Virus record (IMG/VR): IMGVR_UViG_3300028591_000001 | Span: 115,547 to 179,546 of that record | Source of the DNA: a virus | Taxonomy: Duplodnaviria > Heunggongvirae > Uroviricota > Caudoviricetes | DNA length: 64,000 nt | Strand: one strand, 5' to 3' | In this document: positions 3,011-51,309 of the stretch, piece after piece | How positions within the stretch are numbered: position 1 is the first letter of the stretch | Layout: each line of letters starts with the position of its first letter | Translations under genes and position numbers: made by a program | The notes under the pieces: model-generated | Database searches by the model: none | What the model saw: the letters and a program-made list of their open reading frames with translations, nothing else | Told to the model about the DNA's origin: nothing

Positions 3011-3012
3011 AA

Positions 3013-5585: not shown

Positions 5586-5589
5586 TAAT

Positions 5590-7800: not shown

Positions 7801-7806
7801 CCATCA

Positions 7807-8397: not shown

Positions 8398-8398
8398 A

Positions 8399-8620: not shown

Positions 8621-8897
8621 CTTTGTAGTATCTTAGATATTCTTTATACTATCTTTCATCTAGATAGTAAATAACTCCATCTATTTCTACTTTTTTTAGC
8701 ATTACCATTTTCCAGCAACACAATGATTATTTAAGTTTCTCATCTTTATGAGAATGTGACAACCACAACCTCTGATAAATCCGGGTTTTGCAAAAGAGGA
8801 AACTTCATTAGTATCTGGATTTAACCAAAGTTTTGGATTACATAATCCCATAGCAGGACTAAAAATAGGACAATTCTTACAAATGTCTCTACGTTCA

Positions 8898-9809: not shown

Positions 9810-9832
9810 ATAACATATATTTTTTATTTAAT

Positions 9833-11184: not shown

Positions 11185-11286
11185 AATAATTAATATTTAA
11201 AAATATAAAAATTGAATTTTTGAATAAGATATTTACTTTTAATTTAACACTTTATATAAAATATGAATAAAAAATAGATTAGAAAG

Positions 11287-12261
11287 ATGTAGACTGCTAG
11301 TGGAGGTCCACTTCAATTAACTCCAGAAGAACAAAAGTATTTAGAATGGAGTAAAATGACTCCAAAATAGCAATAGACTTATAGAATAAATAGAGCTAAA
11401 GCTTATTTTAATGATGGACAATTATGGAATGCAGCAAAATCTTATTTTGGAGGATTTGATCCTAGAAATCCACATTTAATTACTGGAGAGGCTCCTAGTC
11501 CAGGAATGAGAAATCCTAAGTAGATAATACAAGGAGTTTAGAAAGCTAAATCTATAGCTTAGAGAGCTGCTAAAATTTCTGATAAAGTGTTTGATAGACA
11601 ATATTGGAGGGCAATAAGTAGTGGAAATCCTAAGAGAGTTTAGGCTGTAAGAAGTTTACATTTTAGTGCTAAAGCTCCTGAAACAAAAGTTGTTGATATT
11701 AAAGGAAGACCTCAATTGGTAATTCATAAAACACCTAATTATTTTATAAAATTTGATAATAATAGAAGTTATGGAAAAGTAAATTGGTTTGCAACAAAAA
11801 ATGCTTTTGAAGGAGAAGAAGGAGTATTTGCAACTGGTGCTGGACGTAATCCGAGAGAAATGAAATTATATGTTAATATAAAAAATCCCCACATTCCAAC
11901 TTTAGATGAAGGGGTAGAACCTGCATATATAAATGAAGGAGAAGATGGAATTTTAGCAATTGTAGACAATAACTATACTAATTATTTTCCTTCTACGTCA
12001 AAAGCAGGAAAAGGATTTAGAATATCCGGGGGAGTAAATAATCCTTATGCGTTAAAATCCTATAATTCTATAACTTATGATAATAATGGAAATATTATTC
12101 CTATTTCTTAGAGAGATAATTTTTTAATTAATGATATAAGATATAAACAAGGAGGTAAAATGAATATATTAGAATTTTTAAAGAATGGAAGTAGAATCCA
12201 TATTAAAGAAAAGAACAAGGGTAAATATTTTAAATCAATTAATAAATATGTAAATGTATGA
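11287..12261 (+). CDS. Late protein of about 324 aa with 6 recoded TAG codons (the first is codon 2). Ends at TGA.
   Basis: Frame traced by hand from ATG 11287 through TAG at 11290, 11368, 11374, 11521, 11539, 11560, 11641 and 12109 to TGA at 12259. Confidence 0.5.
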
Positions 12262-13010
12262 TGGAAGAAAAATTAACAAAGGAAGAGTTACAAGAATTAG
12301 GAAGTTCTTTTAATTCAAAATTAGGAATGGATATGTTTAAGAAAATAGATGGAGTTGTTTATAAATTATGTACTAAATGTCTTAAATATAAACCAATGAA
12401 TGAAGAATATTTTCCACATAGAAGTAATGTAAAATGTGGATTTGATTCTAGATGTAAGGAATGTTATAAAGAAAAAGAAAAAACTAGAGTTAGAGTCAAA
12501 CCATTTAACGAAGAAGGAGAATTATATTGTTTAAAATGTAAGTAGTATAAACCTTTATCTGAATTTTATCCAAATTCTAGTAATACTAAAAATAGAAATT
12601 ATTATTCTAATTATTGTAAATCTTGTGAATCTGAAAGAAGTAAAATAAAAAGAGAAAATTACCATTCTGATGATCCTATTTTATTTTTTAGAGATTTAGC
12701 AACTGCTTGTAGAGGTAGGGCTTATCGTAGTAATAAATTTAAATGTACAATTACTAAAGAAGATTTGTTAGATTTATATGAAAAACAAAATCATAAATGT
12801 GCATTATCTGGAATTGAAATGACTACAATAAAAGAAAAAGGAAGATTACCAAATAATGCTTCTGTTGATAGAATAAATCCTGGAAAAGATTATTCTATTG
12901 ATAATATAAGATTAGTATGCAATCATATAAATATGATGCGATCAGATTTATCAGATGAAGAACTTTTAAAATATTGTAAAGCTATTGTAGATTATGTTAA
13001 TAGAATTTAA
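12258..13010 (+). CDS. HNH homing endonuclease with one recoded TAG
   Basis: ORFs 12258-12545 and 12765-13010 are in one frame joined by TAG at 12544. Motif ASVDRINPGKDYSIDNIRLVCNHINMM (HNH_3-like) plus Cys-rich zinc fingers. Confidence 0.7.
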
Positions 13011-13011
13011 A

Positions 13012-13845
13012 AAAGGAAATAAAATATATATTAAACCTAAAAATCGCGGCAAATTTACAAAATACTGCCACGGTAAAGTAACAGATGAATGTATATAGAA
13101 AGGAAAAAATAGTTCTAATCCTGCTATTAGAAAGAGGGCTACGTTTGCAGCTAATGCTAGAAAGTGGAAACATGAATCAGGAGGATTATTAAAGTTTGAA
13201 GAAGGAGGTAAAAATGGAGCTCCTTCTACTAAGTTTTTATCTAAATAGTGGTTTAAAAAAGCTGGAAATACTATAAACAATATTGGAAATAATATAGGAG
13301 ATTTCCTAAAAACAGATACGGGAAAAGGTATAATGGATATTGGATAGAATATTCTTAGTGGATACACTAATTATAAAAAAGCTTCTAATTTATTAGATTC
13401 TCAAGTAGAACAAAGTAAAGCTTCCTTAGAATAGGCCTATTAGGATACAATATAGTAGGCTATATAGAATAGGGCTATTCAACAATAGTTGGTAAAGGAA
13501 TAGTGGAAACAAGCTTATTAGAATGGAGAAACTTTAGATAATTATAGTGATATTGTTGCTCAACATATAGGATGGAATTAGTATAGTTCCGCTTTATAGA
13601 ATGCCGAACAATAGAAAAGACAGCAAGAAGCATTAATGGATTAGCAAGCTAAATAGGCTAAAAGTAATGCTCTAGGAAATTTATTTGGAAGTGTTGTATA
13701 GTCAGGACTTGGAGTTTTAGGTAATGTATTAGGAAAAGGGGGAATATCAAGTACTCCTACTACAAGTACCTCTACTACTGCAACGAATAATACTTAGTTC
13801 AGTTCTCCTTTAAATGATTCAACAAAATTTTGGAGTATAAAATAA
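13012..13845 (+). CDS. TAG-rich reading frame (more than 15 TAG) with no in-frame ATG. Its N-terminus (KIYIKPKNRGKFTKY) duplicates the C-terminus of 11287-12261, so it may be the downstream half of a gene split by the HNH insertion.
   Basis: Frame 1 is open from 13012 to TAA at 13843-13845. Similarity IHIKEKNKGKYFKSI vs IYIKPKNRGKFTKYC. Confidence 0.35.
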
Positions 13846-14389: not shown

Positions 14390-14391
14390 AG

Positions 14392-14463
14392 TTGTCCCAC
14401 TAGGATTCGAACCCAGGCTAAAGGATTTAGAGTCCCCTGTACTGACCGTTATACTATAGGACA
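14392..14463 (-). tRNA. Suppressor tRNA with anticodon CUA (reads UAG), probably Gln-derived
   Basis: Cloverleaf: acceptor UGUCCUA/UGGGACA (U1-A72), D GUAU-AACGGUCA-GUAC, anticodon stem GGGGA/UCCUU, loop CUCUAAA (U33, C34-U35-A36, A37), T-arm CUGGG-UUCGAAU-CCUAG, discriminator A. Resembles the phage tRNA-Gln(UUG) at 34623. Confidence 0.8.
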
Positions 14464-22556: not shown

Positions 22557-22649
22557 AGCAGGTTGGTGTAATGGTCAACGTTAGTTGGTAGCTACTAATA
22601 CAACATATTCCTAAAAGGAATGATAAAGGTTCGAATCCTTTGCCTGCTG
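22557..22649 (+). tRNA. tRNA-like (93 nt) with good acceptor and T-arm, an extra ~20 nt, and no identifiable anticodon
   Basis: Acceptor AGCAGGT/GCCTGCT, T AAAGG-TTCGAAT-CCTTT. Interior carries TGGTAGCTACT. Confidence 0.35.
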
Positions 22650-22713
22650 CAAATTTAATTTTGATTTTTCATAAATTAAAATAAATTAAAAAATAAAAAT
22701 AATTTTTAATGTT

Positions 22714-24264
22714 ATGAAAATAATTCCAAAATTACAAACAGCATGGCAGCCATTATAGGTTGATAATACTAGAGTACAAAAACCTATGGTTATGTAGCCT
22801 ATAAAAAGAACTTTAAAACCTGGAGAAATGTTGTTAAATTTAGGAGGACAACAAACAGTAGTGACTCCAAAACAAACATATATTCAATAGGATAATCGTT
22901 CAGATAAATAGAGAAAATCAGATTAGAAATATGCTTAGCAGAAAAGAAAATAGATTGAATTAGATAAAGCATAGAAAAGAACTGGAGAAGTTGCTAGTGC
23001 TTTTTTAGAAAGAACAATGCCTTCTTATTGGGCTTAGTAGTTAACTAATGAATCTCTTAATCCAATATAGTAGTTTTTAATTGATGGATTTAGTCCAGGA
23101 AAAGTTATTAAAGGGGGATTAACTACTGCTGCTATATTAACAGCTCCAATTAGAGGACTTTCAAAAACAAAATTTGGAACTCATATTGTAGAAGAAGGAG
23201 GAAAAAAATTAATAGCAGAAAGGGTTCATCCTGAATGGTTTAGTGGAATATCTCCAGAATTATAGAAAGAAGCTGAAACATTTTTAAAAGAAGGATTAAC
23301 TAAAAGACCAATATTATATGAAGAAGTTAAAAATAATCCAGAATTAATGTAGTTTGTTAAAGATATTGCAGAAGGTAAAAATTAGGAAATTTTAGCAAGA
23401 TTTAATGAAACAAAAGTTGCTCCGAATTTAGGTTCTCTTATAGCACTAAAACAAACTGGATTACCTCAAACTAAACACGTAGTAATAGGTCAAAAAGGAC
23501 ATTCTCCAATTATAGGAGATTGGCATAATACAAAAAATATGGGTAATTATAATTATTTTGCTGGAGGAGAAAATGCTAAATGGGCAGCTGCTTAGTATGC
23601 TGATGTTGGCACCTTTGAACAAGCACATAATTTATTGATTAGTAGAGGTTTTACTCCTGGTTCTAAGTAGTATGAAACAGCTATGGAAGAATTTTCTAAA
23701 ATAATGGATATGCAAAAAGCTAAAGGAGTAAAAAGATTTGCTTATAAAGAGGGTGCTAAAGATAGAAGTGGAGGAGCTAAAAACTTTAGTTGGGAACATT
23801 TGATTACTAAAGGTCCCACAAAAAAGAAAATAGAATGGACTCCAGAAGAAAGAGATAACTATCTAGATGCATTAAAAAATTGGACAAATTTCTGGGGAAA
23901 AGATATAGAAAGTGGAGGTTCTAGACAAGTGATTGCTAGAGCTGATAGTCCTTTAGGATTTGCTACAATAGAAGCTAATGGAAGAAATTATAAGGAATTA
24001 GGAGGTTCTTATATAGAAATGCCTGGAATTTCTAGGCCAAATAAAATTGATGTTAATACTGATGCAAATAAATTAGGAAAGTAGTTAGAAAAATTAAAAA
24101 TTCCATTATTTAGAGTATCAGAAGTTGATGATCCAATAAGAATTAATACTCACGGTTCCTACGGATTACCAAGTACTAACACATGGTTTTTTCAACATAA
24201 AAAAGGAGGAAAATTAAATGAAAATAACAGAAGAAATGCGTTGGGTATGTTTAAAAGGATATGA
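22714..24264 (+). CDS. Late-type protein of about 516 aa with at least 15 recoded TAG codons. Function unknown.
   Basis: ATG 22714, frame traced through many TAG, including the one at 24082-24084, to TGA 24262-24264. ORF 23683-24084 is an internal fragment. Confidence 0.5.
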
Positions 24265-27583: not shown

Positions 27584-29419
27584 ATGATTACAGTAGAATT
27601 AAACAAGAAAAATGAGAATCCATTTTATGGATGTAGTAACTGTTTGAAACTTATTGAACAAGCAGCAGGTAATGTGACTAATTCTATGCTCGATGCAGCA
27701 TGGAAAGAAGTTGCACAAGACCTAGAAAAGAAAAAGATGTTCTTCTCTATATTATTCTCTATTGGAGATATTACAGGAAGACAGCATAATATCTTTGGTA
27801 AGAAGAAGATAGATTCTGGTGGTAATGCCAACAGAGATTCTTTTAATACAATCTTCCATTGGTTGTGGAATAATAACAAGAATCAATTCATTAAGTTCAT
27901 GAATGCACAGTTGTTCAATGAATATACTTGTTTTGATTTCTTGTTCCAGAATCGTGTGAAGACCAAAGGTTCAAAAGTACTGAATGTATTCTCTGCTTAC
28001 AATGATCCTGAGTACAAGAAGGCTCTTCTTAACTATGTGTATTCTGTTATCAATGGCACTAATCCATTTAACAAAATGCTTGTGGCTAAGTTCTTGACTA
28101 TTCCTCGTACATCTAAGAGACAAGGTCATAAGAAAATGCTTCCTGAAACTCTTAAGATTATGAGAGAAAAGAAAGCTTTCTTGGAGGAATTGTCTAAGAT
28201 GATGGGTTGGGAGATTGAATATTTCAAAGGCTATCGTGAGTGGAGAAAGCAGTATAATGGTGAATTGGAATCTGTTCTGTTCTCTACTGGAAAGATTAAC
28301 GAATTTACTAAGGATGAATTCATTAGTTGGTTCGATAAACTTCCAGCACAGGCTCGTTTCAGAGTGAAGAATCGTATTCTTTATTCTAAAAAGAATGAAG
28401 ATATGAATGATGGTAATCGTGTTGTTGATTTATCCGATTCTGGATATAAATGGGCTAAGTTTCAACCTTGGTTGAAAGAATGGGAACAGTTCAAGGAGAA
28501 TAAGCAGCAAGAACAGAGAATTCTTGAAGAGAAAGTTCGTCAAGGACAAGCTACCGATGAAGATAAGATTAAACTTCAGAAAGTAAAGAAGGAAGCTAAA
28601 GTTACAACTGGTGCTACTAACTTTAATGAATTGTATCAATCGATTCTTAATGGTAATGTAGACAAGTTGAAACTTGAATCATTCATTCAGAATAAAGTTA
28701 ATTTACCATATAATAGTTTGGTAATTATTGACGATTCTGGAAGTATGGGTGGAGCTCCTTTCAACTTTGCAAAGTTTATTGCTTCGGTATGTCTTGTTAA
28801 GAATCCAGATGATGATGCTCGTAATCTGATTGGATTCTTCAATAGTCGTTCTCACTGGCACAGTTTCATTGATCAAACTTCTTCTCGTAAGAATAGTCTT
28901 CTTAGAACTCAAATTGCTCAAACTAATACTAAACCATTAGTTGATCCAAAATTGAGTTTCTATGATAACTACCAGAGAATTAGTAAATTCTGTGATGCTA
29001 CTTATCAAGGAGGTGGAACTCGATTGAATTCAATTCCACAAGGATTGGAATATATCATCCATGAGAATCCAGACATGCTTGATACTCTTAAGGAATATCC
29101 TATTTGGACAATTTGTTCAGATGGAGATCTAAATTCCTGTTGGAACGCTAAGTCAAGTATGTTAGAGTTCCAGAATGATTGTCGTCGTATTCTTGGGTTT
29201 GTTCCTTTTGTCGTAATGATTGAAATATATCGTTATGGACAACCTTCAATTAATCATTTTGAAGGAATTGAGAATATGATATATATTCCATCAAATCCTG
29301 CTCAGATTGAACAATTCTTAACCAACTTTAAGGATATGGATATCTTTGATGTTTATACTCCACTGTTGAGTCTGTATCGTTCAAATCGTTATCAATTAGT
29401 ACGTGAAAATACTCTTTGA
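27584..29419 (+). CDS. 611-aa protein with a C-terminal von Willebrand factor A domain (MIDAS DDSGSMGG, GGGT, SDG). Candidate Ro60/TROVE-like RNA-binding protein.
   Basis: vWA motifs seen directly. A ~360-aa N-terminal non-ATPase region is followed by the vWA domain, which is the Ro60/Rsr layout. Surrounded by tRNA-like RNAs. Confidence 0.6.
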   Translation: MITVELNKKNENPFYGCSNCLKLIEQAAGNVTNSMLDAAWKEVAQDLEKKKMFFSILFSIGDITGRQHNIFGKKKIDSGGNANRDSFNTIFHWLWNNNKNQFIKFMNAQLFNEYTCFDFLFQNRVKTKGSKVLNVFSAYNDPEYKKALLNYVYSVINGTNPFNKMLVAKFLTIPRTSKRQGHKKMLPETLKIMREKKAFLEELSKMMGWEIEYFKGYREWRKQYNGELESVLFSTGKINEFTKDEFISWFDKLPAQARFRVKNRILYSKKNEDMNDGNRVVDLSDSGYKWAKFQPWLKEWEQFKENKQQEQRILEEKVRQGQATDEDKIKLQKVKKEAKVTTGATNFNELYQSILNGNVDKLKLESFIQNKVNLPYNSLVIIDDSGSMGGAPFNFAKFIASVCLVKNPDDDARNLIGFFNSRSHWHSFIDQTSSRKNSLLRTQIAQTNTKPLVDPKLSFYDNYQRISKFCDATYQGGGTRLNSIPQGLEYIIHENPDMLDTLKEYPIWTICSDGDLNSCWNAKSSMLEFQNDCRRILGFVPFVVMIEIYRYGQPSINHFEGIENMIYIPSNPAQIEQFLTNFKDMDIFDVYTPLLSLYRSNRYQLVRENTL

Positions 29420-31016: not shown

Positions 31017-32996
31017 ATGACATTAACAACATTAATTATTGTAGGAGTAATTGTCCTCCTAGTAATTTTGACAATTATTGGACTCTTGTCACGTTATCGT
31101 AAATGTCCAAGTGACCAACTTTTGGTAGTTTATGGTAAAGTTAGTGGTAAATCAGCTGCTAAAATTTATCCTGGTGGTGGTGTGTTTGTATGGCCCGTTA
31201 TTCAGGATTATAAGGTAATGTCTTTAAGACCTTTCCAAATTAACTCAGAAGTTGTAGGTCCAGACAGTGGTATGATCAGAACTCATGTTACTGTAGCTTT
31301 AACTACTGCTATTTCTCAAGATCCGACAATTCAGCAGAATGCTGCAGCTCGTTTCTTAAGTGCTAATTCTAATGAGATTGTTTCTCAGATTAAGACCATT
31401 CTTGAGGGTGAAGTAAGATTGATTATTGCTTCAATGTCAATTGAAGAAATTAATTCTGACCGAGATGCTTTCAAGACTAAGGTTAAGGATAGTTTAGGTA
31501 ATGAGTTAAACAAGGTTGGTTATGATATAACTAACATTAACATTCAAGAAATTACTGATGAAGCAGATTATATTAAGAATCTTGGAAAGAAGAAGGAAAC
31601 AGAGGCTAGAGCAAATGCAGAGGCTGATATTGCTGACAAGGAGAAAGACGGAGCAATTAGAAAGGCCAACATCAAGAAGGAACAAGAAATCCAAGTAGCA
31701 ACTGCTGATAAGGAAAGAGAAACTACTGTTTCTCAGACCAAACAGGAGCAGGCTGTTAAAGTAGCAGAGATTGAGAAGGAACAGGAGACTCAGATTGCTG
31801 AAACTCAGAAAGCTAAAGAGGTTCAACTGTCTGAAATTGAGAAAGACAAGCAAACCGGTATTGCTAATCAGAAAGCTCTCCAAGTAGCTGCTGTAGCAAG
31901 TGCTGATGCAGATGCAGAATCAAAGAAGGCAGAAGCAGAAGCAAGAAAGGTAGCAGCTGTAGCAGCTCAAAAAGCAAAAGCTGAATCAGAGAAAGCTAAG
32001 TCTGAATCAGAACAGAGAAAGGCCGTAGCAACTGCTGAAGCTGATGCTGAAGCTACTGAGAATGAGAAAGAAGCATTGATGCAAACTCGTATTGCTGAAG
32101 CTAATCAGAAGAAAGAAGCTGATATTGCTAAGGCAACTCAGGAGAAGGAAGCTAAGAAGGCAGAGTATGAGTCTGCTAAACAGATTCGCAAAGCTAAGGC
32201 TGATCAGGATGCAGGTGTAGCAGAACAGAATGCAAAGATTCTTGTAGCTCAAGCACGTGCAAAAGCAGGTCAAGCAGAAGCTGATGCTGATAAAACTGTA
32301 CAGGTTGCTAAGATTGAAGCAGATATGAAGGCTGCTAAGACTAAACAAGAACGTCAGTTGGAGGTTAACGAAGCTGAAGCTAAGGCAGTTGAAGCTAAGT
32401 TAAATGCTGAGCAGGTTGTTCCTGCAGAGCAGGCTAAGAAGAAGACCATTATCGAAGCAGAAGCTATTAAGGAACAAGCTGTCCTTGAAGCAGAAGCCGA
32501 GAAGCAACGTATTCTTAAAAAGGCTGAAGCAGACGCAGAGAAAGTTCGTTTGAACATGAATGCTGAAGCTGAAGGTATTAAGAATAAGAAACTTGCTGAA
32601 GCAGAGGGTCAGAAGGCTCTCTTGTTTGCAGAAGCAGAAGCTCTCCAGAAGAGAGAAATGGCTCCAGCACTTGCTCTACAGAAGATGGTTGAATCATTCG
32701 GTGGTAATCCAGATCTTCTTGTTCAGTACAAAATGGTTGACCAGTATAAGTCAATCGCTGAGGCTCAAGAGAAGATGCTCGAGCATATTCAGCTTGGTAA
32801 TGTCACTATTTATGGTGATAAGAACACTGGTGCTGACTTCGCTAAGAGCTTTATCAAGAACTTTACTCCTGCCCTTGACATTGTTAATGACGGATTCAAG
32901 GATAAGTTTAAAGAAGTATTTGGTCTAAAGAAGGCTGAGGAACTTCCTGATAATTCTGAGACTCCAGAGAATAAGGAATTTGATGAAGTGAAATAA
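31017..32996 (+). CDS. Flotillin or band-7 (SPFH) family protein (YqiK/FloT-like), 659 aa
   Basis: N-terminal TM, PSDQLLVVYGKVSG...GGVFVWPVIQDYKVMSLRPFQI SPFH core, long EA-rich coiled coil, C-terminal domain. Confidence 0.75.
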   Translation: MTLTTLIIVGVIVLLVILTIIGLLSRYRKCPSDQLLVVYGKVSGKSAAKIYPGGGVFVWPVIQDYKVMSLRPFQINSEVVGPDSGMIRTHVTVALTTAISQDPTIQQNAAARFLSANSNEIVSQIKTILEGEVRLIIASMSIEEINSDRDAFKTKVKDSLGNELNKVGYDITNINIQEITDEADYIKNLGKKKETEARANAEADIADKEKDGAIRKANIKKEQEIQVATADKERETTVSQTKQEQAVKVAEIEKEQETQIAETQKAKEVQLSEIEKDKQTGIANQKALQVAAVASADADAESKKAEAEARKVAAVAAQKAKAESEKAKSESEQRKAVATAEADAEATENEKEALMQTRIAEANQKKEADIAKATQEKEAKKAEYESAKQIRKAKADQDAGVAEQNAKILVAQARAKAGQAEADADKTVQVAKIEADMKAAKTKQERQLEVNEAEAKAVEAKLNAEQVVPAEQAKKKTIIEAEAIKEQAVLEAEAEKQRILKKAEADAEKVRLNMNAEAEGIKNKKLAEAEGQKALLFAEAEALQKREMAPALALQKMVESFGGNPDLLVQYKMVDQYKSIAEAQEKMLEHIQLGNVTIYGDKNTGADFAKSFIKNFTPALDIVNDGFKDKFKEVFGLKKAEELPDNSETPENKEFDEVK

Positions 32997-34833: not shown

Positions 34834-34922
34834 GGGATCATAGTATATCGGTCAGTACTAGAAATAGGCGATTACCTCTGACTTTTAATCAGATAAGCTG
34901 GGTTCGACTCCCAGTGGTCCCA
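34834..34922 (+). tRNA. tRNA-Lys(UUU)-like, 89 nt, with a 17-nt insertion between the D-arm and the anticodon stem
   Basis: Acceptor GGGATCA/TGGTCCC, D GTAT-ATCGGTCA-GTAC, insert AGAAATAGGCGATTACC, anticodon stem TCTGA/TCAGA with loop CTTTTAA, T CTGGG-TTCGACT-CCCAG. Confidence 0.45.
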
Positions 34923-35219
34923 CAAATAAACCTAACACCGAGAGCAACGATCCTTATATTAAATATCCGGATGAAAACTAGTTGATATATGTGAGTCGGG
35001 TCGGTTAGTTTAGCATAAGTCGAAAGTTTATGTGAAGAGTTTAGGTTTATTTAATATCGCAGTGAGAATTGGTATTCAAGAGGGTCTCATAAGCCTTCCT
35101 CCGAGGATTCGATTTCCTCCGCTGCAAGGACACATAATCAAAACCTCCACGTGGTGTGTCTGGGTAATGCTAATTTGATTAGATAATTTATTTAATTTAA
35201 TTTATTTAGAATTGAATTA

Positions 35220-36096: not shown

Positions 36097-36183
36097 TATC
36101 CAATATGGCGCGTTCGACTAGTGGCTTAGGTCACAAGACTTTCAATCTTGTAGGAAGGTTGCTTCCTCAGGGGTTCGAATCCC
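36097..36183 (+). tRNA. Class-II-shaped tRNA-like (87 nt) with anticodon UUC and an 18-nt variable hairpin. Atypical.
   Basis: Acceptor GGCGCGT/ACGCGTT (two G-U), D GACT-AGTGGCTTA-GGTC, 6-bp anticodon stem ACAAGA/TCTTGT with loop CTTTCAA, variable GGAAG-GTTG-CTTCC, T AGGGG-TTCGAAT-CCCCT. Confidence 0.45.
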
Positions 36184-36380
36184 CTACGCGTTACTGGTCC
36201 AACCTAGAGCGACACGGTTGTAAAAGAATTGTCAAGCAGCTTTGGTATTTAAGCATTAAATACCTCCCAGAAGAACAAACACGCTTTGACGGGAGATGAT
36301 CTAAACGTGTTCCAATAGTATTACTATTGTAGAATCCAGAGATAATGTATTATGACCATATAAAATACATTGAGGAATCT

Positions 36381-38301: not shown

Positions 38302-38544
38302 ATGAAAAAGATTATCCTAATAATAGCACTTACCATCTTGATAGTAGGGTGTGGAAAAGAACAAAGAGTGACACATAAGTATGAGGTGCTTTTATCTACA
38401 AAAGACACAATGTATGTAGATGCTTGGTATTATGAGTCCTCTTCTGCAACATTTACATCAAAGAGAACCGTTATATTCTATGATACTCATTGGATGGATA
38501 TTTTAACAATAAATGACCCAATTTATATAAGAGAAATAAAATGA
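38302..38544 (+). CDS. Lipoprotein, 80 aa
   Basis: Signal peptide with lipobox LIVGCG. Confidence 0.5.
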   Translation: MKKIILIIALTILIVGCGKEQRVTHKYEVLLSTKDTMYVDAWYYESSSATFTSKRTVIFYDTHWMDILTINDPIYIREIK

Positions 38545-38789
38545 AGAAACTAATACTATTAGCACTTACCGCCTTGATGATGGTTGGGTGCGAAAACATA
38601 AAAAATGATGACGGCACATACAGTTTGGCAACATCTCCACATACATATATTATTGATTCTTGCGAATATATTGGCTATATTGGTTATGGTACTGGTGATA
38701 TTATAGCTCATAAAGGCAACTGTCGTTTTTGTAAAGAGCGCAGACAAAAGGAATTGGAAGAGTTGGTAATTAAATTAAAGGAGAAATAG
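38541..38789 (+). CDS. Lipoprotein, 82 aa
   Basis: Signal peptide with lipobox MMVGCE. Confidence 0.5.
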   Translation: MKKLILLALTALMMVGCENIKNDDGTYSLATSPHTYIIDSCEYIGYIGYGTGDIIAHKGNCRFCKERRQKELEELVIKLKEK

Positions 38790-40614
38790 TTATGATGGAA
38801 ATATTAATTATGCTTGGTTTAATTATATTAATAATAGGCTTAATTTGTCTATTCGTGGATAAGAGTGGTTTTGCTTTTCTTTTTGGCGTAATTGGAGCAT
38901 ATATTTTGTCAGGTGGTGTAATGATGCATCAAGAAAGTCACAAACCTACAGCAATGGATGTTTATCAAAATAAAACTACCCTTGAGATAACCTATAAAGA
39001 CGATATACCTGTAGATAGTGTGGTAGTGTTTAAAGATAAAGAGAAATAACTATGAGTATAGACGAATTATCGTTGTTTGATATTTATGACGAATATTTTA
39101 ACTATAAGTATTCTATGCAAATTGACCATTTTAGCGAAGAACTTAACAAGTGAGTAACTATGAGACAAGAAGATAAAGAATTATTATTGAAAGACCTTTG
39201 TACAAGGTTGCCTTATAGGGTTATTATAGAGTATAATAATGATGGCTGTTCGTCAACAAGAGAACTTGGACTTGGCAGTTTACATGATTTTATGTTTGAT
39301 AATGCAGAACTTAAGCCTTATCTTCGTTCAATATTTTCAATGACAGAGGAAGAGTTTACAGAATTAAAAAACTATACTGAGTTAAAATATAGCCAACTTG
39401 AACTGGTAGATTGGGATAATACTCATAGAACAATTGAATTTTATCTTGAGGAAATACCACATTACTGCGTAATTAAAGTATTCGATTGGTTTAATGCCCA
39501 TCATTTTGATTATCGAGGACTAATTGAAAAAGGTCTTGCACTAGAAGCACAAGAAGGAATGTATAAAAACTATTAGTTATGATTACAGAAGATTATGTTA
39601 GTTTTGAAACTGCAAAACTATTGAAAGAAAAGGGATTTAATGAAAGACTACTTACTTTCTATGTTACTGATGAAACTAAAAAGGAAGGTTGTTTCCAAAT
39701 AATGGCTTTCACTGATGATAAAATAGATAATAATCATAGTGACCATTGTTATTTAGCACCAACCCTTCAAATGGCTATGAAGTGGTTAAGAGAAGTACAC
39801 AATTTATGTATTGAACCTTACAGAACAGCTTGTGGTTATCTTTATACAATATCTACTATTCCTTATGGAAGTTGTAAATGTAATCCAAGAGAAGGTGGTG
39901 ATGATGAAGATAGTGGTCAATGGACTACCTATGAAAAAGCTTGTGAAGCAGCAATAAAGTATTGTCTTAAAAACTTAATTTGAATAACTATGGAATGGTT
40001 ACTATTGGAAAATGGACGAACCATAGATACATTTCCATCACATACAAAAGCAAAGAACGCTAAATGGTGGAAAGAAAAAGAAGCAAAACAAGATTGGCTT
40101 GATTTGTCTTATGAGATTAAACCAAAAGAATAAATAACTATGACAACAATTAAATCATATACTGACATAGAACAGTTAAAAAAGTTGGCTGAGATTCTGC
40201 CACTTGAAAATGCGGATATGGAGTATTTAGCAATAAAGGAAAATGGCCTATTAGTAGGAGCTGTTCCGTTTGTGAAAGATGATTCTGAAGTAGAAGATTC
40301 GGCATATAGTCATATCTATGATAGAATAGCCTGTTGGTCTCTTACAGCATTGCTTAATGTTTTACCACGAATAGAAGGTCTTAAACCTGTATTAGATTTG
40401 GAAATGAATTATATTCAATACCCATCTGATATTGACCTTAGTGCTACGGCAGACAATCCTGTTGATGCTTGTGTGGTTATGATTGAGAAATTGCATGAAC
40501 TTAAACTGTTGTGATTATGAGTGCAGGTTGGATAGCATTCCTCATTATTATGAGTTATATACTACTCTTATGCTTTATAGTTTACGAATATAATAAATAT
40601 AAAAATAAACAGCT

Positions 40615-41712
40615 ATGAAAGAACTTAGTATAGAAGAAAAAGCCCAAAGATATGATGAGACTTTAGATAGAACAATACGTTTCTTAACAATTATAGGTGT
40701 GTCTCCAAATGAAGAACCTATTGCAGCTGTAAAACGTATGTCAGAATACATCTTCCCCGAACTCAAAGAGAGTGAGGATGAGGATGAGGATGAGAGGATA
40801 AGAAAAGCTCTTATAAAATTAGTGAAGAAAGCTGGAGAAGGATATGAGAATGTTATAGATGGTGTCAGTATAGAGAACGCTATTTCTTGGCTTGAAAAGC
40901 AAGGAGAGCATAAGCCTGCTGATAAGGTTAAGCCAAAGTTTAAGGTTGGTGATTGGATTATAACAAACAAAAACCATATTTGGTATATTGATGAAACACC
41001 CGAAACAACATCGTATCTGTATAGGCTTATAAACCAATATGGCAAGGCTGAAGTTGCAGAATTTGAGGTTGTTGACGAGAAAGCAAGACTTTGGACTATT
41101 CAAGATGCAAAGGATGGTGATGTGCTTGCAGTAGAAGCGATTGAAGAAAACTATCAGTATCCATTTGTTGCTATTTACAAAGAGCGTGGTTTAGACTTTT
41201 TTAATTCATATTGTTCTATTGGTTTTAATGGTAAATTTCATGAAGCTGACACAGGACATTTAACAAAAAAAATTCATCCAGCAACCAAAGAACAGCGTGA
41301 CCTTTTATTTCAAAAGATGAAAGAGGCTAGGTATGAATGGGATGCTGATAAGAAAGAGTTGAAAAAGATTATAGACGAAAAGCAAATAAAAAAGAATCTT
41401 CAAGATAACAGTTTTCGTAGAATGTTTGAGCAGAATACTGCTTGGAGTGAAAAGGATGAAAGAATGTTCAATTCTGCCCTTTGGCACGTTAAAAACTCCT
41501 GTGGTAATGGTGGTAAGAACAGCGGAGAATTTGAAGTCTATAACTGGCTCTTATCCCTCAAAAACAGATACACTTGGAAACCAAGTAATGAACAAATACA
41601 TTATTTGTCTTGGATTGCAAACGTAAAGTTAGGTGATAGCGTGGTTGAACAAGAGGTTTCAAAACACCTTAATGAATTGCTTAAAGATTTAAAGAAACTT
41701 AGGGAGGAATAG
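40615..41712 (+). CDS. Hypothetical protein, 365 aa, with an acidic EDEDEDE stretch
   Basis: ORF track. Confidence 0.55.
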   Translation: MKELSIEEKAQRYDETLDRTIRFLTIIGVSPNEEPIAAVKRMSEYIFPELKESEDEDEDERIRKALIKLVKKAGEGYENVIDGVSIENAISWLEKQGEHKPADKVKPKFKVGDWIITNKNHIWYIDETPETTSYLYRLINQYGKAEVAEFEVVDEKARLWTIQDAKDGDVLAVEAIEENYQYPFVAIYKERGLDFFNSYCSIGFNGKFHEADTGHLTKKIHPATKEQRDLLFQKMKEARYEWDADKKELKKIIDEKQIKKNLQDNSFRRMFEQNTAWSEKDERMFNSALWHVKNSCGNGGKNSGEFEVYNWLLSLKNRYTWKPSNEQIHYLSWIANVKLGDSVVEQEVSKHLNELLKDLKKLREE

Positions 41713-44700
41713 TTATGAAAGCAAACGAAGAATATGATTAACATAACAATATCAAAGAATAAATTCGGTAAGTTTTCATATGTCCGATTAGAGATTGAAG
41801 GAAGTGTAATGTCTATGACATATGATGATTATAAAAAGCTTATAACATGCGTATTAAATCCTAAATTCACAAACTATCGTGGAGAAATGTACTTAACTGA
41901 TAAAGATTATACAAGTGAATTAGAGAAATTAAGAAAGTAAAATTATGAATTCAATCAAAGTACCAGAAAAGATTTTTTTGGAATGGTATAGAATTGGTGA
42001 TAAAAAAATATCGTGATTGGTGCATTACACCAAAAACAAATGACGAATCAGTTGAATACATTCACATTGATGCCTTTATTGATAAACTTGAATGTTGGAT
42101 GAATGAAAATTTCTATCAGTATGCAGGAGAATTTGCTGAAGGAATTTTAGCCCAATTTGATAAAACAGAAGACGCAATTGAGGACTTTAGAAACTATATG
42201 AAAGGAGAGTAATAATATGGATTATAAAGCAGAAGGAAACATTATATACCCTGATAAACAAATGCTGACATGGGGTCCTTTTTATTATCATTCAAAAGAA
42301 AAAGCAATTGAAAAAACAGAAGAGATTCTAAAAACCATTACAGAATGGTGTAACGAGAAAGAGCCTTCACTAAAAATTGAACCCCAAAAAGTACGGAGAT
42401 TAGCTAAAGGTGAGCAAACCATCTTTTATATACAAGCATGGAAAGATGAGAATACTCTTGAAAATTGTAAAGGGATTATAACTGTTGAAGAAATATATTT
42501 TGAGGATTAAGTTATGGCACATTTAATAGACAAATCCACTGTGGTAGCGGAGATAGAGAGAAGAATAAAAATAAACAAGGAGTGCATGCTTGGTTTAAAA
42601 AACCTTGATTACTACCAAGGAAAAGTGGATGCACTCAATGACACACTTTTTACCCTCGACACCCTTGAAGTAAAAGAGGTGGACTTGGATAAAGAGTATG
42701 AGGAATTTGTAGAAAACGACGCAGTGTATAGAAAACTTGTTAATAGCATAGTTGGTAAGAGTATTGCCAAGCATTTCTTTGAACTTGGACTTAAAGTACA
42801 GAAAAGGTTATGATAATCATAAAAGAAAAGAAATCAGTTCCACATGCAGATATAAGATGTGACAATTGTGGTAGTCTGTTACAGTATGGGAATGCTGACT
42901 TACATGAGGATTATAGTCGCTCAGACGGAATGACTTATGCCTTTCAAGGACATTTAAGACCATATTACTTTAATTGTCCTGTCTGTGGGTGTAAAGTAAT
43001 TGCTAATTGGATAATGCAGAAAGGAGAAGAGATATGAAAGTTAAAATTAAAGATAAAATAATTGATGTACCTGATTATTTTGAAGTTAGAGATAATCTGC
43101 TTTTTAATAATAATACTAAAAAATATGAAGGTGTTGATGGGGATATTGTAATTATTAATCAATATGGTAAATCAAAAAGAGGGCATATTAAAGGATATAC
43201 AGAGTATCAAATAATTCCTACTTATGAGTGGCCTACGATAGTTATATCAGCACTAGGGCTTCATGATGGCTCTTGTAATATTGATTTTATTCATTGCACA
43301 CCCGTATATAAAGTACAGAAAGGAGAAAAAGCATGATTTGGATTACATTATCTTGCCTTATGGTAGCTATTTCAGTAGGAGGATTGTTCTATATAATAGA
43401 ACAAAATAATAAAGCACAGAAATGAGAAGAATTATGAAAAAATGGTTTTATAGAAATGTCGTATTAGTATATGTCCTTGCAATAGCGTCAGTAATAATAG
43501 GAGTACTTTACTTCATACAACAAAAAGTATCAGAAGAAACTTTTAATGCGTTATTCAATGCTATGATTATTGTAATTTTTATGGTAATCGCAAGTACTGT
43601 GTTTGTTGGTATTTGGGGTGAAAATAAATTAGAAGAAATAGAAAAAAGGAGAAAGATATGAAAGACAAAGTACAGAAAGAGCCTGTAAGCGAGGACTTGG
43701 AAGCAGAACTTGACAAGTACATCAAAGACAACTTCACCATCGACAAGGAACAACTTAACAGATTTGGCATTGAAGAAAAGGATTATATGTACTCTATGGA
43801 TAAAAGTGATATGTTTAAAATGATAAGGCATTTCACAAATAACTACAAAGTACCAGCAAGTAATGATTTAGAGGAGGCAGCCAAACTTTGTGTGTCAGAT
43901 TTTTTATGTATTACAAACGAAGAAGATTGGGATGATACTGCTGTTGACGCATTGAACATATTCAAGGCTGGTGCTAAGTGGCAGAAACAACAAGACCAAT
44001 CCACTATTGAACTTGCCGAAGATCATGCTATGCTTGCAGGTATGGAGAAGATGAAAGAGGAGTTAATGGCAAAGGCTATTGATGCTCAGTGTTTTGGATT
44101 CCAAGGTGCTGCGTTGTTTTCTTTTAAATTACCAGCAGATAACTATCTTGTAGGCTCAGAAGTAAAAGTAATTGTAATTAAGGAGGATTAAACTATGAGT
44201 AAGGCAGAGAAATTTATCAGAGAACATACAAAGAATTGTAGCAACGATTGGTATGATGACCTTTCACATGGCTATGAACCTTGGCTTACTCCAGACCAAG
44301 CAAGAAGGGCTGTGGAAATTGCAAGGGAAGAAATCTACGAATGGTTAAATAATAATGTCTTTGAAGATAAATACTTAGACTTAAGAAAAATGGGAATAGA
44401 ATATGCTTTCTATGGATATAAAGTGGATACTTTAATTAACGATTTAAAACAAGCAATAAAGGATGAAACGTAGAATTTATAAAAAAAATTACTCAAAACC
44501 CCTCTTAACAAAAGGTTGATATGGAAATTTTGTAAGCCTATAAATGTTGTTCCTATTGCTGTTATAGGAAAAGATGGTAAAAGAATAAAAACAATATACG
44601 AAAGATTATGAGCAAGGCAGAAGAAGAAGCAAATAAAAGGTATAGAATTACAAGAGGTGATGATACAGAAGAAACCTCTGGTATTGATATGCAAAGAGCA

Positions 44701-46289
44701 TTAGATTTTATTGAAGGCTACCAACAGGCAGAGAAAGACGTTGCAGAGGCGTTTGCAAGAATCATTCGTGGCAATCTTGGTGGAATAGGAAATGGTATTC
44801 AGAATATGTTTGAAAAACTATATGCTGATATAACTGGAGAAAAAATGTACAAAGGATTTATAGATTAGCAATATGAGCAAAGCAGAAGAATTTGCATATA
44901 GTAAATACCCTAAAGACAAGAAAGGGGTATTGTATGACCTTGCAAGAAATAGTATTATCAACGGTTATCAACAAGCAGAAAAAGACTTATTAGAAAATAA
45001 ACATGAAAAAAGTTGGAGGTTAGATGAAAAATTATGGAAAGGTATTAAAGATGTAGAAGAAGCGTCCTATCAATATATGTATGATGCTTCTAATGATTGG
45101 GCTTATGATACTCCAACATGGAAAGATGTTCAAGATGCTTTTAAGGCTGGAAGTGAGTGGAAAGAAGACTTGGAACTTACTTGGAAGGATATGAAACTAA
45201 TTTGGAATATCACTGACGAAATGAATAATATGCCAGAAGAAGAGTTTTATCAAGAAGTATTGAAACGATTTAAAAATTTAAAAAAATAGACTTAACAATA
45301 TGATATTTTTAAAAATATTTATTTTAATTGAAATAGTAGGTTTGATATTATTTATTTATGAAATCAAACATGCTCCTTTATATCCACCTGATTATGATAT
45401 ATAAACGTTATGAATATTGGTCTAATGAGGGTAAAAAATGGACTAAGTGGTTTAAATGGAATTCTAATTTAAAGCCAGAATTTCAAATGGAAGATAGAAG
45501 AATATTTTGTAGATTGAAAAATGAATATAAAGATGAAAAAGATTTATGTACAAATTGTTAATACTTTAAATGGTATTTCACAAACAGGTATGATTGAAGA
45601 ACCTGTAATAAAAGGACAAGAAATTCAAAACACTTTAAAACATTTTGGTATAGTTTATGGAGAGATTACTTGGAACAGTGATTTTATAAATGAAGATGTT
45701 GCTAATCATCCTAGACTACTTACTGGAAGTGTTGATGGAGCTAACAAAGTAATAAATATAATTTCACTATAAATAGTATGGAAGAACTAAGAACTATTAA
45801 AGTAAATTATACTAAGGCTAAAGAATGGTATAATTCAAATAATCCTTCATTAAAAGAAATTGCTTTACAAGCATTTACTAAAGAAGAATTAGAACAAATT
45901 GATTTAAAAGAACTAATTCAACTTCTTTTAAGTTATAATTATAGTCTTACTGATACTCAAAGAATTCAACTTGAGAGTTTAATGAACAGAAAAGATATTA
46001 CTAAAATATCAGCTCCAAAATTATTAAGAATTCTTGCATGCTATTTTAATGGAGGCTTTTGGAAAAAGAAAGAAGGAGAAGAAGGATATTTCTTTTATAA
46101 AAATGAAAACGGTTTTAAAAACATTTATAATCCAAATGTTATAGATAAATATTGGTGTATAGTTTCTCATACTTCTGTATGTTATTCAACATTAGTATAT
46201 TTTAAAAGAGAAGAAGATTGTAGAGAAGCATATAATATTATGAAAAATTTAGGTAAATTAGATGCTTTATATACAGATTTTTAAGGTTG

Positions 46290-47415: not shown

Positions 47416-48741
47416 ATGAATAAATTAGTTTCAAAAAACCCGGTTTAGAGATTTAAAAAGGGTAGAAAAATTATTAAAGCACAAAAGAGTTGGGGAAAGG
47501 GATTTGGAATTGAAAATTCTGGAAAAATTTTTGGATCTTTGAATACTTTAGGGTATGAAAACCCAAATATAGGTAATAATTTTTCTATTGGAACCTCTGC
47601 AAGATTTTTGGGATATAATCCTCCAGAAACTTAGGGAAATATGCTTTATAATATTCCAAGTAGTTAGGAAGAATCAAAATCATTTACTAATGAAGTTGTG
47701 GATAAATCTGTATCTAATGAAGAACCTATTAATAATAAAATCGAAAAAAAAGGTAAAAAAATATAGAAAAAAGGTATAAATCCAAATAGGTTTGTCTCTA
47801 TTTATGATGATAAAAATAGAACTTGGACAACACATGCTGCAGATAATAAACTTACTAATAGAGACTAGGTAAAAGCTTTTTAGAGAGATGTTCTTAAAAT
47901 GGGAGAAGCTTCTGATGGAATTTGGGGAAAAAATACTGAAGCTGCTTATTAGAAATATTTAACGTCAAAACAAACAGCTCCTACTGTTTCTTATACTCCA
48001 GTAGTTGAAAAAAATGGAGTATTTACTCCTACAGAAAAGACTACTACAGATGTTAATGTAGCAAGAGATTATTTATTAACTCCAAAACAAGAAACTCCTA
48101 CATTTAATCTTGGAACTTATGTTGGAAGTGATCCTACAAGAACATATAATGCAGGAAATATTAGAGCTAATAGAGGAAATTTATATTCTAATGTAGACGA
48201 ATATTGGAATTATTTAAGTAATAATAAAAATTCTGATGATTTTTAGTTATTCCAAAATATTATGGGAACATAGGATGGAAATCTAAATAGAGAAGCATTT
48301 AATGCTACAATGGCTAATTATGGTATTTCTGGAAATCTTGGAAGAAGAGATTCTGGAAGACTTGCAAATTTATTAAATGATTTAAGAGCTATTGGAACAA
48401 AAGGCTCTGATGCTAGAAATGCTTTTCTAAACTCATATAAATAGAGTTTTGATAATGTACAGACTGGAGTAGGAAATACTATATATAATCGTTCAGCCAC
48501 AAGAGACTGGTTAAGAAATAATGCTGGAGGTTCAGCATATGCTTTTACTGGTGATTAGAGAAAAGCTGTAAGAAATATATTAAATGGTTAGGGAACAGAT
48601 CAAGATAAAGAATTAATTAAAGGAAACTCTGTTTTAGCAAAAGCATTAACAGGTTATTTTAAAACAGGAGGAAATATATTGCCATCTAGAAATATTATTG
48701 AAAGATTTAAACAAAGAAATTTTAGAATAGTGGCTCAGTAA
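47416..48741 (+). CDS. Late virion-type protein (~441 aa, at least 18 recoded TAG) with a peptidoglycan-binding (PG_binding_1-like) motif
   Basis: ATG 47416, many in-frame TAG, TAA at 48739. V-K-A-F-[TAG]-R-D-V-L and A-A-Y-[TAG]-K-Y-L place TAG at the conserved Gln positions of the LQxxL and FQ motifs, around DGIWGKNT. Confidence 0.55.
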
Positions 48742-48767
48742 CCACATTAAAAACTGAAAAAATTCAA

Positions 48768-50204
48768 AAATGTGCTAAAGGATACAATATTAAATATAAT
48801 GATTTGTATAATAATACATTTTTTAATAATAATATTACTTTAAATAATAAAAAATATTATAGATATTAGCCTCCTGTTAATTCTTTTTTAATTGAAGATA
48901 TTAAACCTTATTCTGAAAAAAAATATTATAAATATTCTCCTAATAAAAATATTATATTTGATGATCAAAAAATAAAAAAATATGAAATAGAACATCCAAA
49001 TATTAATAATTTTTATGAAAAACCAAATAGTTTATATATTCAAAAAATTCCAGAAAAAACTAAATCTATAGAAGAACTTAATGCTCCTAATTTTATAGAA
49101 AGCAAAGTACAAGATATTAAAGATGTTATTAGGGAATCTGGTGATGTTGGAGATTTTATTCAAACTGCTTGGAATGGTATAGCTAAACATTTTGTTAATG
49201 ATAAACAAGTTAAAACTAAAAAACGTCAACTTAAAGTAAATACACATTCTAAAGAGCAAATTTCTCAGTCTCCTAAAGAAGTCTTAGACGAAGCTTTTGC
49301 TAAAGAAACTAGAAATGGGACTGATACTCTTACTTGGGATAAAGTACCTGTAGATAGAACTGGAAATAAATATTATATTCAAGAATCATATCCTATTACA
49401 GATGATATGAGATTTGGTTCTAGAAATAGACTTGAATATAGAGATTTGGATTCTAATAATGCACCTCTTACTACATATCGTCCGATTCATAAATATGAAG
49501 ACTATGTAAAAGGAATAACCTATGCTGGTAAAAATTATAAAGCCATAGATAGAGATAGTGAAGGTCACCAAAATCATTTTATGGGTTACGATAAAGACGG
49601 AAAATTTAAGATAGGTCCTCTATCTAAATTTGGTCCTGGAGACACTATGACACAAGTTTTTTATTCTGATATTATCGGAGTTCCTAGAGATGCTAACGGA
49701 AACATTCAATATGTTGAAGATAGAAATAATCCAGGTCGTTTTCAACCTGTCGTTGATATTTATGGCGAGTCTACTTATGATGAAAACGGAAATCTCAAAA
49801 GAGGTAAAAAAGGAAGAGGTGTTCTTACTACAATGAGCAAAAAGAGAAGTCTTAATGGAAGTTATGGTAATGTTTCTGGCGGTCGTGTTCTTCTACAAGT
49901 AGGAAATGAAACTAGAATTGTAGCTGGAAGTATTGAGCATGTAATTCAAGAACTTGAACTTATGCAAAAAAATCATAAAGGACAACCTGTTAGATATTAT
50001 CAACTTGATAACGGTTCTTACAATAGAGGTCTTAGAACACGTAATGGAAAAAATATTTCTGCTTTAGATTTGAGAGATTATGATAGACAAAACACTACTA
50101 GTGCTGGAGGTGGACATTTTATGTATATATTAAATAATAAAAAAGGAGGAATACTTCCATCAATAAACCCAACCACAAGATTTAAAAATAGAAAATTTTA
50201 TTAA
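48768..50204 (+). CDS. Late protein (at least 478 aa including ORF 49407-50204) with one in-frame TAG at 48867 and no in-frame ATG at its 5-prime end. Start unresolved.
   Basis: Frame 0 is open from 48741 to TAA at 50202. Confidence 0.4.
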
Positions 50205-50851: not shown

Positions 50852-50936
50852 CACCAGTTGGTCGAGTGCTCGATGGCAGGGGACTGCAAATCCTCTAGGA
50901 GAAATCCTCACGTTGGTTGGAATCCAACACTGGTGT
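50852..50936 (+). tRNA. tRNA-Cys(GCA)-like with a long variable hairpin and a 6-bp anticodon stem (allo or Sec-like shape)
   Basis: Acceptor CACCAGT/ACTGGTG, D GTCG-AGTGCT-CGAT, anticodon stem AGGGGA/TCCTCT with loop CTGCAAA, T GTTGG-TTGGAAT-CCAAC (G56 with C19). Confidence 0.45.
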
Positions 50937-51056
50937 CTACAATAATCCTAAACACTTAGCAATTGTGTAGAGAATACACTAAAAAGAGTGCTCAACTATG
51001 GCATCTATAGACCATCAAATTGCTCGTGGGATACGTTGAGAGGATTATTAAAATAA

Positions 51057-51181: not shown

Positions 51182-51270
51182 AGGGGAGTAACCGGTAATG
51201 GGTTTCCGACCAGATTTGGGATCTGGAAACGTGATGAGCGTGTATGCGAGTTCGAGTCTCGTTTCCCCTA
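51182..51270 (+). tRNA. tRNA-Pro(UGG)-like with a long variable hairpin, 89 nt
   Basis: Acceptor AGGGGAG/TTCCCCT, anticodon stem CCAGA/TCTGG with loop TTTGGGA, variable ACGTG-ATGAG-CGTGT, T GCGAG-TTCGAGT-CTCGT. Confidence 0.45.
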
Positions 51271-51309
51271 CTATTTAGTAGATAGTTCTTTTAACTTAAT
51301 TAATGTAAA

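Follow-up and report, generated by a model that had tools for sequence, protein, structure and literature searches.

It is highly probable that the gene at 47416..48741 (+ strand) of the window, by which we mean the whole 64,000-nucleotide stretch of virus DNA analysed here, belongs to a distant crAss-like phage that applies genetic code 15 to a subset of its genes, that a tRNA(CUA) reads TAG in these genes as glutamine, and that the product of the gene is a modular, peptidoglycan-binding-like protein. In the mechanism we propose, the tRNA, encoded by the phage itself, would insert glutamine at in-frame TAG codons, and the subset of genes using code 15 would comprise those for the large terminase subunit (TerL) and the portal protein, the adjoining structural genes and the isolated gene at 47416..48741. 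Since their in-frame TAG codons would be read by the suppressor, TAG-rich genes should be fully translatable only once the suppressor is active. The tRNA(CUA) would accordingly carry glutamine, and the gene at 47416..48741 is probably expressed late.

The recoded gene and the phage that carries it

The frame at 47416..48741 starts with ATG, ends with TAA and runs for 441 codons in DNA of ~27% GC with neither TAA nor TGA before its end; a frame of this length is not due to chance, and the ORF is real. It holds 12 in-frame TAG codons (aa 11, 73, 84, 117, 151, 156, 179, 277, 286, 343, 381 and 392) against 8 CAA or CAG codons, and the strings on which the original prediction was built are indeed present in the translation, as NRD-TAG-VKAF-TAG-RDVLKMGEASDGIWGKNTEAAY-TAG-KYL. 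The product is a modular late-type protein, and the block of + strand genes around it is otherwise free of TAG. We propose that the protein would carry an SKNPVQRFK motif at its N terminus, followed in order by a variable linker, two helices that are the divergent remnant of a PG_binding_1-type domain, a conserved all-alpha domain, a small helical module and a C-terminal copy of the SKNPVQRFK-type motif. On the + strand, TAG codon 11 (47446..47448) lies within the N-terminal motif MNKLVSKNPV-TAG-RFK; the divergent, truncated PG_binding_1-like helix-loop-helix occupies aa 149-182 (47860..47961); the highly conserved central all-alpha domain (…NIRANRG…GNLGRRDSGRLANLLNDL…; 48142..48450) contains TAG277, TAG286 and TAG343; the C-terminal helical module (…YNRSATRDWLRNN…TGD-TAG-RKAVRNILNG-TAG-GTDQDK…; 48478..48630) contains TAG381 and TAG392; and the C-terminal motif GGNILPSRNIIERFKQRNFRIVAQ (48664..48738) is similar to the N-terminal one and marks module boundaries in longer homologs.

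Our structural model is an AF2 prediction for a homolog, P0001, that is 84% identical to the window protein (pLDDT 70). In this model the central all-alpha domain, which has columns that are invariant among relatives, reaches pLDDT 80-92 and the C-terminal helical module 92-95; the region of aa 149-182 is predicted to form two helices (pLDDT ~58-73) followed by a short beta hairpin. The central domain gave no significant fold match, and fold searches of the product were uninformative. With glutamine at TAG, the TAG-spanning peptides predicted for the product would include NTEAAYQK, DQVK/AFQR and those flanking SFDNVQTGVGNTIYNR. No lysis cassette was found near the gene, the neighbours of which have no Pfam matches except for a PD-(D/E)XK endonuclease.

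Judged by its crAss-type TerL and portal sequences, the window derives from a distant crAss-like (Crassvirales-related) phage. TerL (3306..5585, - strand; phrog_6681, E=2e-68) has 10 in-frame TAGs and the portal protein (867..3044, - strand; phrog_6547, E=4e-50) has 22. In tblastn searches, which matched almost exclusively Crassvirales and Flavobacterium FpV-type phages, the window TerL was 22-29% identical to that of classified Crassvirales and of the FpV-type phages; it is 48% identical to an unannotated human-gut contig, and at the nucleotide level nothing in the phage collection matches the window. With the stops restricted to TAA and TGA, the window shows long ORFs rich in TAG at 244..13845, 22714..24264 and 47416..48741, while most other + strand genes of the window have no internal TAG. 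TerL, portal and the gene at 47416..48741 all end in TAA or TGA.

The candidate suppressor is a tRNA gene with anticodon CUA at 14391..14463 (- strand), one of 28 tRNA genes in the 64 kb, which ARAGORN labels 'Pyl' from its anticodon alone. It has U1-A72 and G2-C71, as does the tRNA-Gln(UUG) of the window, and aligns best with the CTA tRNA of cr60, one of those annotated as tRNA-Gln in RefSeq Suoliviridae; its overall similarity to the window's 26 other tRNAs does not single out glutamine. Several of the RefSeq Suoliviridae records that we fetched are TAG-recoded, and in these a CTA tRNA, which the annotation calls tRNA-Gln, lies just upstream of TerL.

In these respects the window resembles the known code-15 crAss-like phages (PMC7886860; bioRxiv 10.1101/2021.08.26.457843; PMC9523058), in which TAG likewise occurs in frame in late genes, those for TerL and portal among them, and the remaining genes keep the standard code. 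These phages, too, encode a tRNA(CUA) of their own, show TAG opposite the glutamines of homologs and have an AT-rich genome with many tRNAs. The window differs from them in that its TerL is only 22-29% identical to that of classified Crassvirales and in that the gene studied here is isolated in a TAG-free block, outside the structural block. With the Zeta crAss-like phages (PMC12386605; Yutin 2021) it shares a large number of tRNAs (~28 per 64 kb in the window), relatives with contigs of 136-184 kb, a CTA suppressor tRNA (accompanied in the window's relatives by a TCA one) and TAG stops with a second stop close behind. Unlike some Zeta phages, however, which have a CTA tRNA but no sense TAG, the window phage plainly uses TAG as a sense codon.

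Relatives of the gene and the meaning of TAG

A protein search with the product of 47416..48741 returned 96 database homologs. Every homolog that was checked at the DNA level proved to be TAG-recoded, in that translating its contig under code 11 does not give the database protein, and local translation of the contigs finds TAG at the 'Q' positions; there were no standard-code homologs among those checked. Since all of the relatives are themselves recoded, 'Q' in the database proteins reflects the code-15 assumption of the gene caller and is not independent evidence, and for this reason we made our comparisons at the codon level, at 19 distinct loci. The gene was unmatched by megablast and tblastn against 50,697 phage records, and scans for relatives found only 2 loci in IMG/VR and only 9 in metagenomes. 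The native product, with TAG as Q or X, matched nothing relevant in Pfam or PHROGs and had no PDB-sequence match by phmmer; the single phmmer match of the window segment to PDB sequences, a TetR protein, was judged to be chance, and the homolog segment matched designed Kelch repeats best, which we regard as spurious, with the PG-binding domains of SleB and an L,D-transpeptidase lower down. With this gene the recoded late-gene repertoire gains a new member that had no annotation.

The original prediction held that TAG codons at conserved positions of a peptidoglycan-binding motif reveal the amino acid that they encode. That TAG encodes glutamine across the window is well supported by codon-level comparison, and mostly by evidence other than the motif that was cited. 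The tabulation of TAGs against aligned columns in all recoded genes, which had been suggested as an extension, bears out glutamine as the maximum-likelihood reading. For this we aligned all ORFs of the window with the ORFs of the fetched loci, masking TAG as X, and counted codon pairs. Where the paired sequences were 60% identical or more, the codon opposite TAG, when not itself TAG, encoded Gln in 16 of 36 cases, followed by Glu (4) and Lys (2), although these pair counts are pseudo-replicated; Gln had the maximum likelihood in each of the three identity bands (high, middle and low). In a site-weighted likelihood over 67 TAG sites of the window, the lead of Gln was 17.8 bits over Glu and 26 bits over Lys, and Gln came first in 926 of 1000 bootstraps (93%). 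The lead was still 14.6 bits without the gene at 47416..48741; taken alone, with 11 informative TAG sites, this gene put Gln only 0.6 bits over Thr and so barely discriminates the identity of TAG. We note that one column yields only ~2.6-7 bits, and that with 12 TAGs in 441 codons the chance that a given conserved-glutamine codon is TAG is ~3%, which is modest evidence by itself. Our analysis, like Codetta/FACIL and the terminase alignments of Borges et al., reads the meaning of a codon from aligned conserved columns, as the original prediction also did; it differs from that argument in that one short motif yields few bits, whereas many sites, 67 here, are needed to decide.

Individual sites illustrate the exchange. 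At aa 277/280 there is a reciprocal swap, with DDF-TAG-LF-CAA-NIM in the window and DDF-CAA-LF-TAG-NIM in L004 and L005. Locus L001 has CAA at the positions of both TAG381 and TAG392, and L023 has CAA at the position of TAG392 and TAG at that of TAG381. In distant alignments of TerL and portal, which are noisy at ~21-29% identity, glutamine dominates the columns of TerL aa 534 and portal aa 126 and 711; at TerL aa 669 and portal aa 320, 39 and 99, what the homologs have opposite the window TAG is Glu, Asp, Leu or Asn throughout.

Could TAG specify an amino acid other than glutamine, most plausibly glutamate or lysine, or pyrrolysine as the ARAGORN output of tRNA-Pyl would have it? The uniform non-Gln columns opposite TerL and portal TAGs (all Glu and conserved in the case of TerL aa 669 and portal aa 320) make glutamate a real, if weaker, alternative, and Glu is second in the likelihood test; column 35 of PF01471 slightly favours Lys over Gln. 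Against this stand the margins of 17.8 and 26 bits and the share of bootstraps given above, as well as the preference of PF01471 column 9 for Gln and the fact that in close relatives TAG swaps mainly with CAA, two mutations away (the same 16 of 36), and seldom with the one-step codons GAG, AAG, TTG, TGG and TAT. The 'Pyl' label follows nothing except the anticodon, and glutamine was found by mass spectrometry in related phages (PMC9523058). We regard a non-glutamine reading as very improbable. Scarcely credible is the proposal that the TAGs are true stops and the 'gene' a pseudogene in decay or several short ORFs in a row, even if several TAG-free + strand genes of the window do end in TAG, with TAA or TGA 1-2 codons further on. 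It is at odds with the length of a frame that avoids TAA and TGA in such AT-rich DNA, with the retention of that frame, TAGs at orthologous positions included, in more than 20 related contigs down to ~30% identity, with the alternation of TAG and CAA, with protein-level conservation that runs continuously across the TAG codons in the family alignment, and with the suppressor tRNA in the window.

Register of the module on PF01471

The conserved glutamines of a peptidoglycan-binding motif were originally thought to coincide with two TAGs, VKAF-TAG-RDVL falling on 'LQxxL' and AAY-TAG-KYL on 'xxFQ' of PG_binding_1 (PF01471; profile length 57, gathering cut-off 23 bits). The direct Pfam check gave no support, as the native protein, at full length or as a 61-aa segment and with TAG as Q or X, is unmatched at E<=10. 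Because helix 1 was misaligned by MAFFT when TAG was written as X, we turned to anchored registers and HMM probing. A segment of the homolog L019/P0021 with X at TAG scores 29.2 bits (residues 12-43 on profile positions 2-33, ungapped), and 12 of 90 family members match PF01471 at E<=0.01, the only recurrent Pfam family among them. For reference we used a query that we take to be the phiKZ gp144 N-terminal domain; its residues 9-65 align to profile positions 1-57 with 66.7 bits, and its two glutamines fall at positions 9 and 38.

Point substitutions identify the same two positions as the Gln-preferring columns of the profile. At position 9 of the L019 segment, Gln was the best of 13 residues tried (Q 29.5, K 26.9, E 26.2, R 25.8, W 25.6, N 24.9, H 24.0, S and T 23.8, A 23.6, M 23.1, Y 22.7 and L 22.1 bits), and at position 38 replacement of N by Q gained 5.3 bits. 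At position 35, K (32.3 bits) and Q (32.0) were about equal and were followed by E (30.7) and D (29.5), which marks this column as variable and polar.

Chimeras of L019 and the window protein extend the register to the latter. When the helix 1 and loop of L019 were joined to helix 2 of the window, the score rose to 32.8 bits from 29.5, with DGIWGKNTEAA ungapped on profile positions 23-33; the DG-x-aromatic-G-x-x-T motif is thus present, DGIWGKNT occupying positions 23-30. Substituting Gln for Leu182 in this chimera lifted the score to 36.6 bits, from 32.3, and let the match run on to profile position 46; this gain of 4.3 bits places Leu182 at position 38 and TAG179 at position 35. In the converse chimera, helix 1 of the window with the loop of L019, residues 11-42 aligned to profile positions 2-33, which assigns V152 to position 5 and TAG156 to position 9. 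At the latter, Q scored 16.9 bits, K 14.1, E 13.5 and W 12.9, and X, A, L, Y and S fell below reporting. Once the loop is restored, helix 1 of the window lies ungapped on positions 2-16, and a construct of helices 1 and 2 of the window, altered only in that loop, reaches 19.7 bits; the same helices joined by their own loop, 3 aa shorter, gave no reported PF01471 match. The matches end at profile position 33-37, a third helix is not recognisable, and the full three-helix domain is absent.

Accordingly placed, TAG156 (47881..47883, + strand) stands at profile position 9, the conserved helix-1 glutamine of 'LQxxL', as had been claimed, and the chimera register and the codons of the family agree on this. 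Among 10 codon-resolved family members, position 9 is TAG in 6, CAA in 2, CAG in 1 and AAT in 1, and this column makes the evidence from TAG156 solid. TAG179 (47950..47952, + strand) had been placed three residues out of register: it is at position 35, not at the conserved 'FQ' glutamine, and in the same 10 members the codons here are TAG (5), GAT (2), GAA (2) and GCT (1). The 'FQ' glutamine column, position 38, holds Leu182 (TTA, 47959..47961, + strand) and is Leu in 5 of the 10, Asn in 3 and Lys in 2, never Gln or TAG. The third codon of the stretch, TAG151 (47866..47868, + strand), falls in ungapped register on position 4, a variable column that is Asp in L019 and Glu in phiKZ gp144. In the protein as we picture it, TAG156 would supply the conserved helix-1 glutamine, TAG151 and TAG179 would fill variable polar columns, and the canonical second glutamine would have been lost, with Leu182 in its place. 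The original prediction was therefore correct in substance and half right in detail, and its two motif positions alone support TAG = Gln weakly.

These results suggest that the helix-loop-helix module at 47860..47961 is PG_binding_1-like but divergent and truncated, 3 aa being missing from its loop. It is recognised only in homologs, and its homology is traced by transitivity through family members and through artificial chimeras. It may bind peptidoglycan. Like established PG_binding_1 domains, such as those of SleB and of the phiKZ endolysin gp144 (N-terminal domain), it has, if TAG is read as Gln, V(5)…Q(9)…hydrophobic(12)…G(16) in helix 1 and DG-aromatic-G-x-x-T at profile positions 23-30, with helix 2 following in ungapped register. 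Unlike them, it falls below the Pfam threshold in the window protein, FQ (37-38) is Y-L (Tyr181-Leu182), and there is neither a third helix nor a recognisable lytic catalytic domain attached. The concern that the domain might not be PG_binding_1 at all is thus partly justified, in that the native protein lies below any Pfam threshold, the loop is short and the match extends over only about the first two of the three helices.

Taken further, this concern would make the V..xQ..L…DGxWGxxT stretch a chance likeness or an unrelated helix-loop-helix, and the positions of the TAGs would then say nothing about the glutamine columns of PF01471. The failure of the native protein to match Pfam even at E<=10, coverage of only ~33-37 of the 57 profile positions, the loop shorter by 3 residues and the missing 'FQ' glutamine and third helix are all as this would predict. 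We nevertheless think it unlikely, as L019 exceeds the Pfam gathering score (29.2 against 23 bits), PF01471 recurs in 12 of the 90 members at E<=0.01 and no other family does, helix 2 of the window improves the score of L019 when swapped into it (32.8 against 29.5), and helix 1 of the window aligns without gaps to profile positions 2-16 when the loop is restored.

Published recoding and codon 11

Recoding of TAG to glutamine in crAss-like phages is already published and validated by mass spectrometry, and is not novel here. For Beta, Delta and Zeta crAss-like phages with suppressor tRNAs, Yutin et al. (2021) reported recoding of TAG to Gln and of TGA to Trp that mostly affects late genes (PMC7886860), and in two crAss-like phages Peters et al. 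(2022) used LC-MS/MS to demonstrate glutamine at TAG positions (PMC9523058). Borges et al. derived TAG = Gln from terminase alignments in which stops were written as X, and found lysis-related genes to be especially biased to recoded stops (bioRxiv 10.1101/2021.08.26.457843); we note that the logic of their terminase inference is the same as that of the original motif argument. In Zeta crAss-like phages, backup stops follow TAG and suppressor tRNAs occur as CTA/TCA pairs (PMC12386605). Our finding leaves knowledge of the identity of the recoded codon unchanged, as this was settled by mass spectrometry in related phages; what it adds to the known amber-recoded crAss-like phages is a further lineage, together with a gene family that is uncharacterised. 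For annotation, the window needs code 15 for some genes and code 11 for others, and 'Q' in database homologs of such genes should be read as a gene-caller assumption and not as data.

Incidental to the question of codon identity, the feature of the gene family that we find most interesting is an invariant TAG at codon 11. Codon 11 is TAG in 12 of 12 distinct, divergent family members, in which the flanking codons vary synonymously. Across the family the ratio of TAG to CAR is 242:251, and other glutamine sites switch freely between TAG and CAA. One speculative thought, which we judge to have a minority chance of being right, is that TAG is kept deliberately at codon 11 as a 5'-proximal translational gate; this would set the time at which the product, which would be a modular late or ejected protein directed at peptidoglycan, is made. 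As long as the suppressor tRNA had not yet built up, ribosomes would abort translation once 10 codons had been read, and the modules of the protein that is then made would be bounded by the repeated motif S-K/R-N-P-x-x-R-F-K.

The TAG at codon 11

In all 12 distinct family members that we compared at the codon level, codon 11 of the recoded gene at 47416..48741 (47446..47448, + strand), the glutamine position in the N-terminal motif NP[VI]-Q-RFK, is TAG. This set comprises the window gene and its homologs at loci L001, L004, L005, L007, L011, L013, L018, L019, L021, L022 and L023 of related contigs. The codons flanking codon 11 vary synonymously among family members, and across the whole family TAG and CAA/CAG occur in a ratio of 242:251. 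The codon-11 TAG may serve as a 5'-proximal translational gate. Of the 14 recoded genes of the window, 10 have TAG as their first Gln-class codon (7.1 expected, p=0.08), and the first TAG of these genes lies earlier than under label shuffling (p=0.03).

Terminal motifs and the downstream ORF

The codon-11 TAG lies within a longer motif, S-[KR]-N-P-[IV]-x-R-F-K-x-G-[RK]-K, at the start of the protein (47431..47457). A resembling motif, GGxLPSRNxxxRFK, is found at the end of the same protein (48685..48711) and again at the end of the next ORF (50160..50186). Longer database homologs (P0002, P0007, P0029 and P0038) carry internal copies of the motif between modules, a placement that suggests a candidate module boundary, processing site or packaging signal. 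The downstream ORF (48711..50204, + strand) contains two in-frame TAGs, both of which fall within a span of 496 codons that is 78% identical to L001. No in-frame ATG was found before 49407 in this ORF. Two explanations fit: translation begins at a codon other than ATG, or the upstream part is conserved only as DNA.

TAG as a probable stop codon, and tRNA genes

Six window genes that are otherwise free of TAG, five on the + strand (38541..38795, 39160..39582, 40615..41718, 44195..44482 and 44873..45295) and one on the - strand (3013..3309), carry a TAG 1-2 codons ahead of their closing TAA or TGA. This spacing indicates that in these genes TAG is probably a real stop with the second stop as an immediate backup, a pattern known in Zeta crAss-like phages (PMC12386605), and overlapping gene junctions of the ATGA type may explain part of it. 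TGA is a stop in the window, and tRNA calls over its 64 kb include none with anticodon TCA; such a tRNA (an opal suppressor, for which ARAGORN prints 'SeC') lies near the copy of the 47416..48741 gene in the close relatives L001 (13095..13167), L002 (8344..8416) and L005 (3575..3648). Five window tRNA calls on the + strand (22557..22650, 34834..34923, 36107..36194, 50852..50937 and 51182..51271) are unusually long at 86-94 nt, one with no anticodon assigned, and may represent intron-containing or aberrant tRNA genes.

A candidate effector and CAG-rich genes

The TAG-rich ORF at 11263..12261 (+ strand, nine TAGs) matches ART-PolyVal, the ADP-ribosyltransferase of polyvalent proteins, below threshold, at 18.3 bits (cut-off 31.2; E=0.004), and ends in a KQGG-type tail shared with several other TAG-rich ORFs. 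Together these similarities hint that such ORFs encode virion-delivered effector proteins.

Two large TAG-free genes on the + strand, 27584..29419 (13 CAG) and 31017..32996 (27 CAG), encode Gln as CAG far more commonly than the rest of the window, and local GC is raised around both; recent acquisition from a host is possible. The predicted product of 31017..32996, which matches a 'lipoprotein' PHROG, appears band-7/flotillin-like in sequence.
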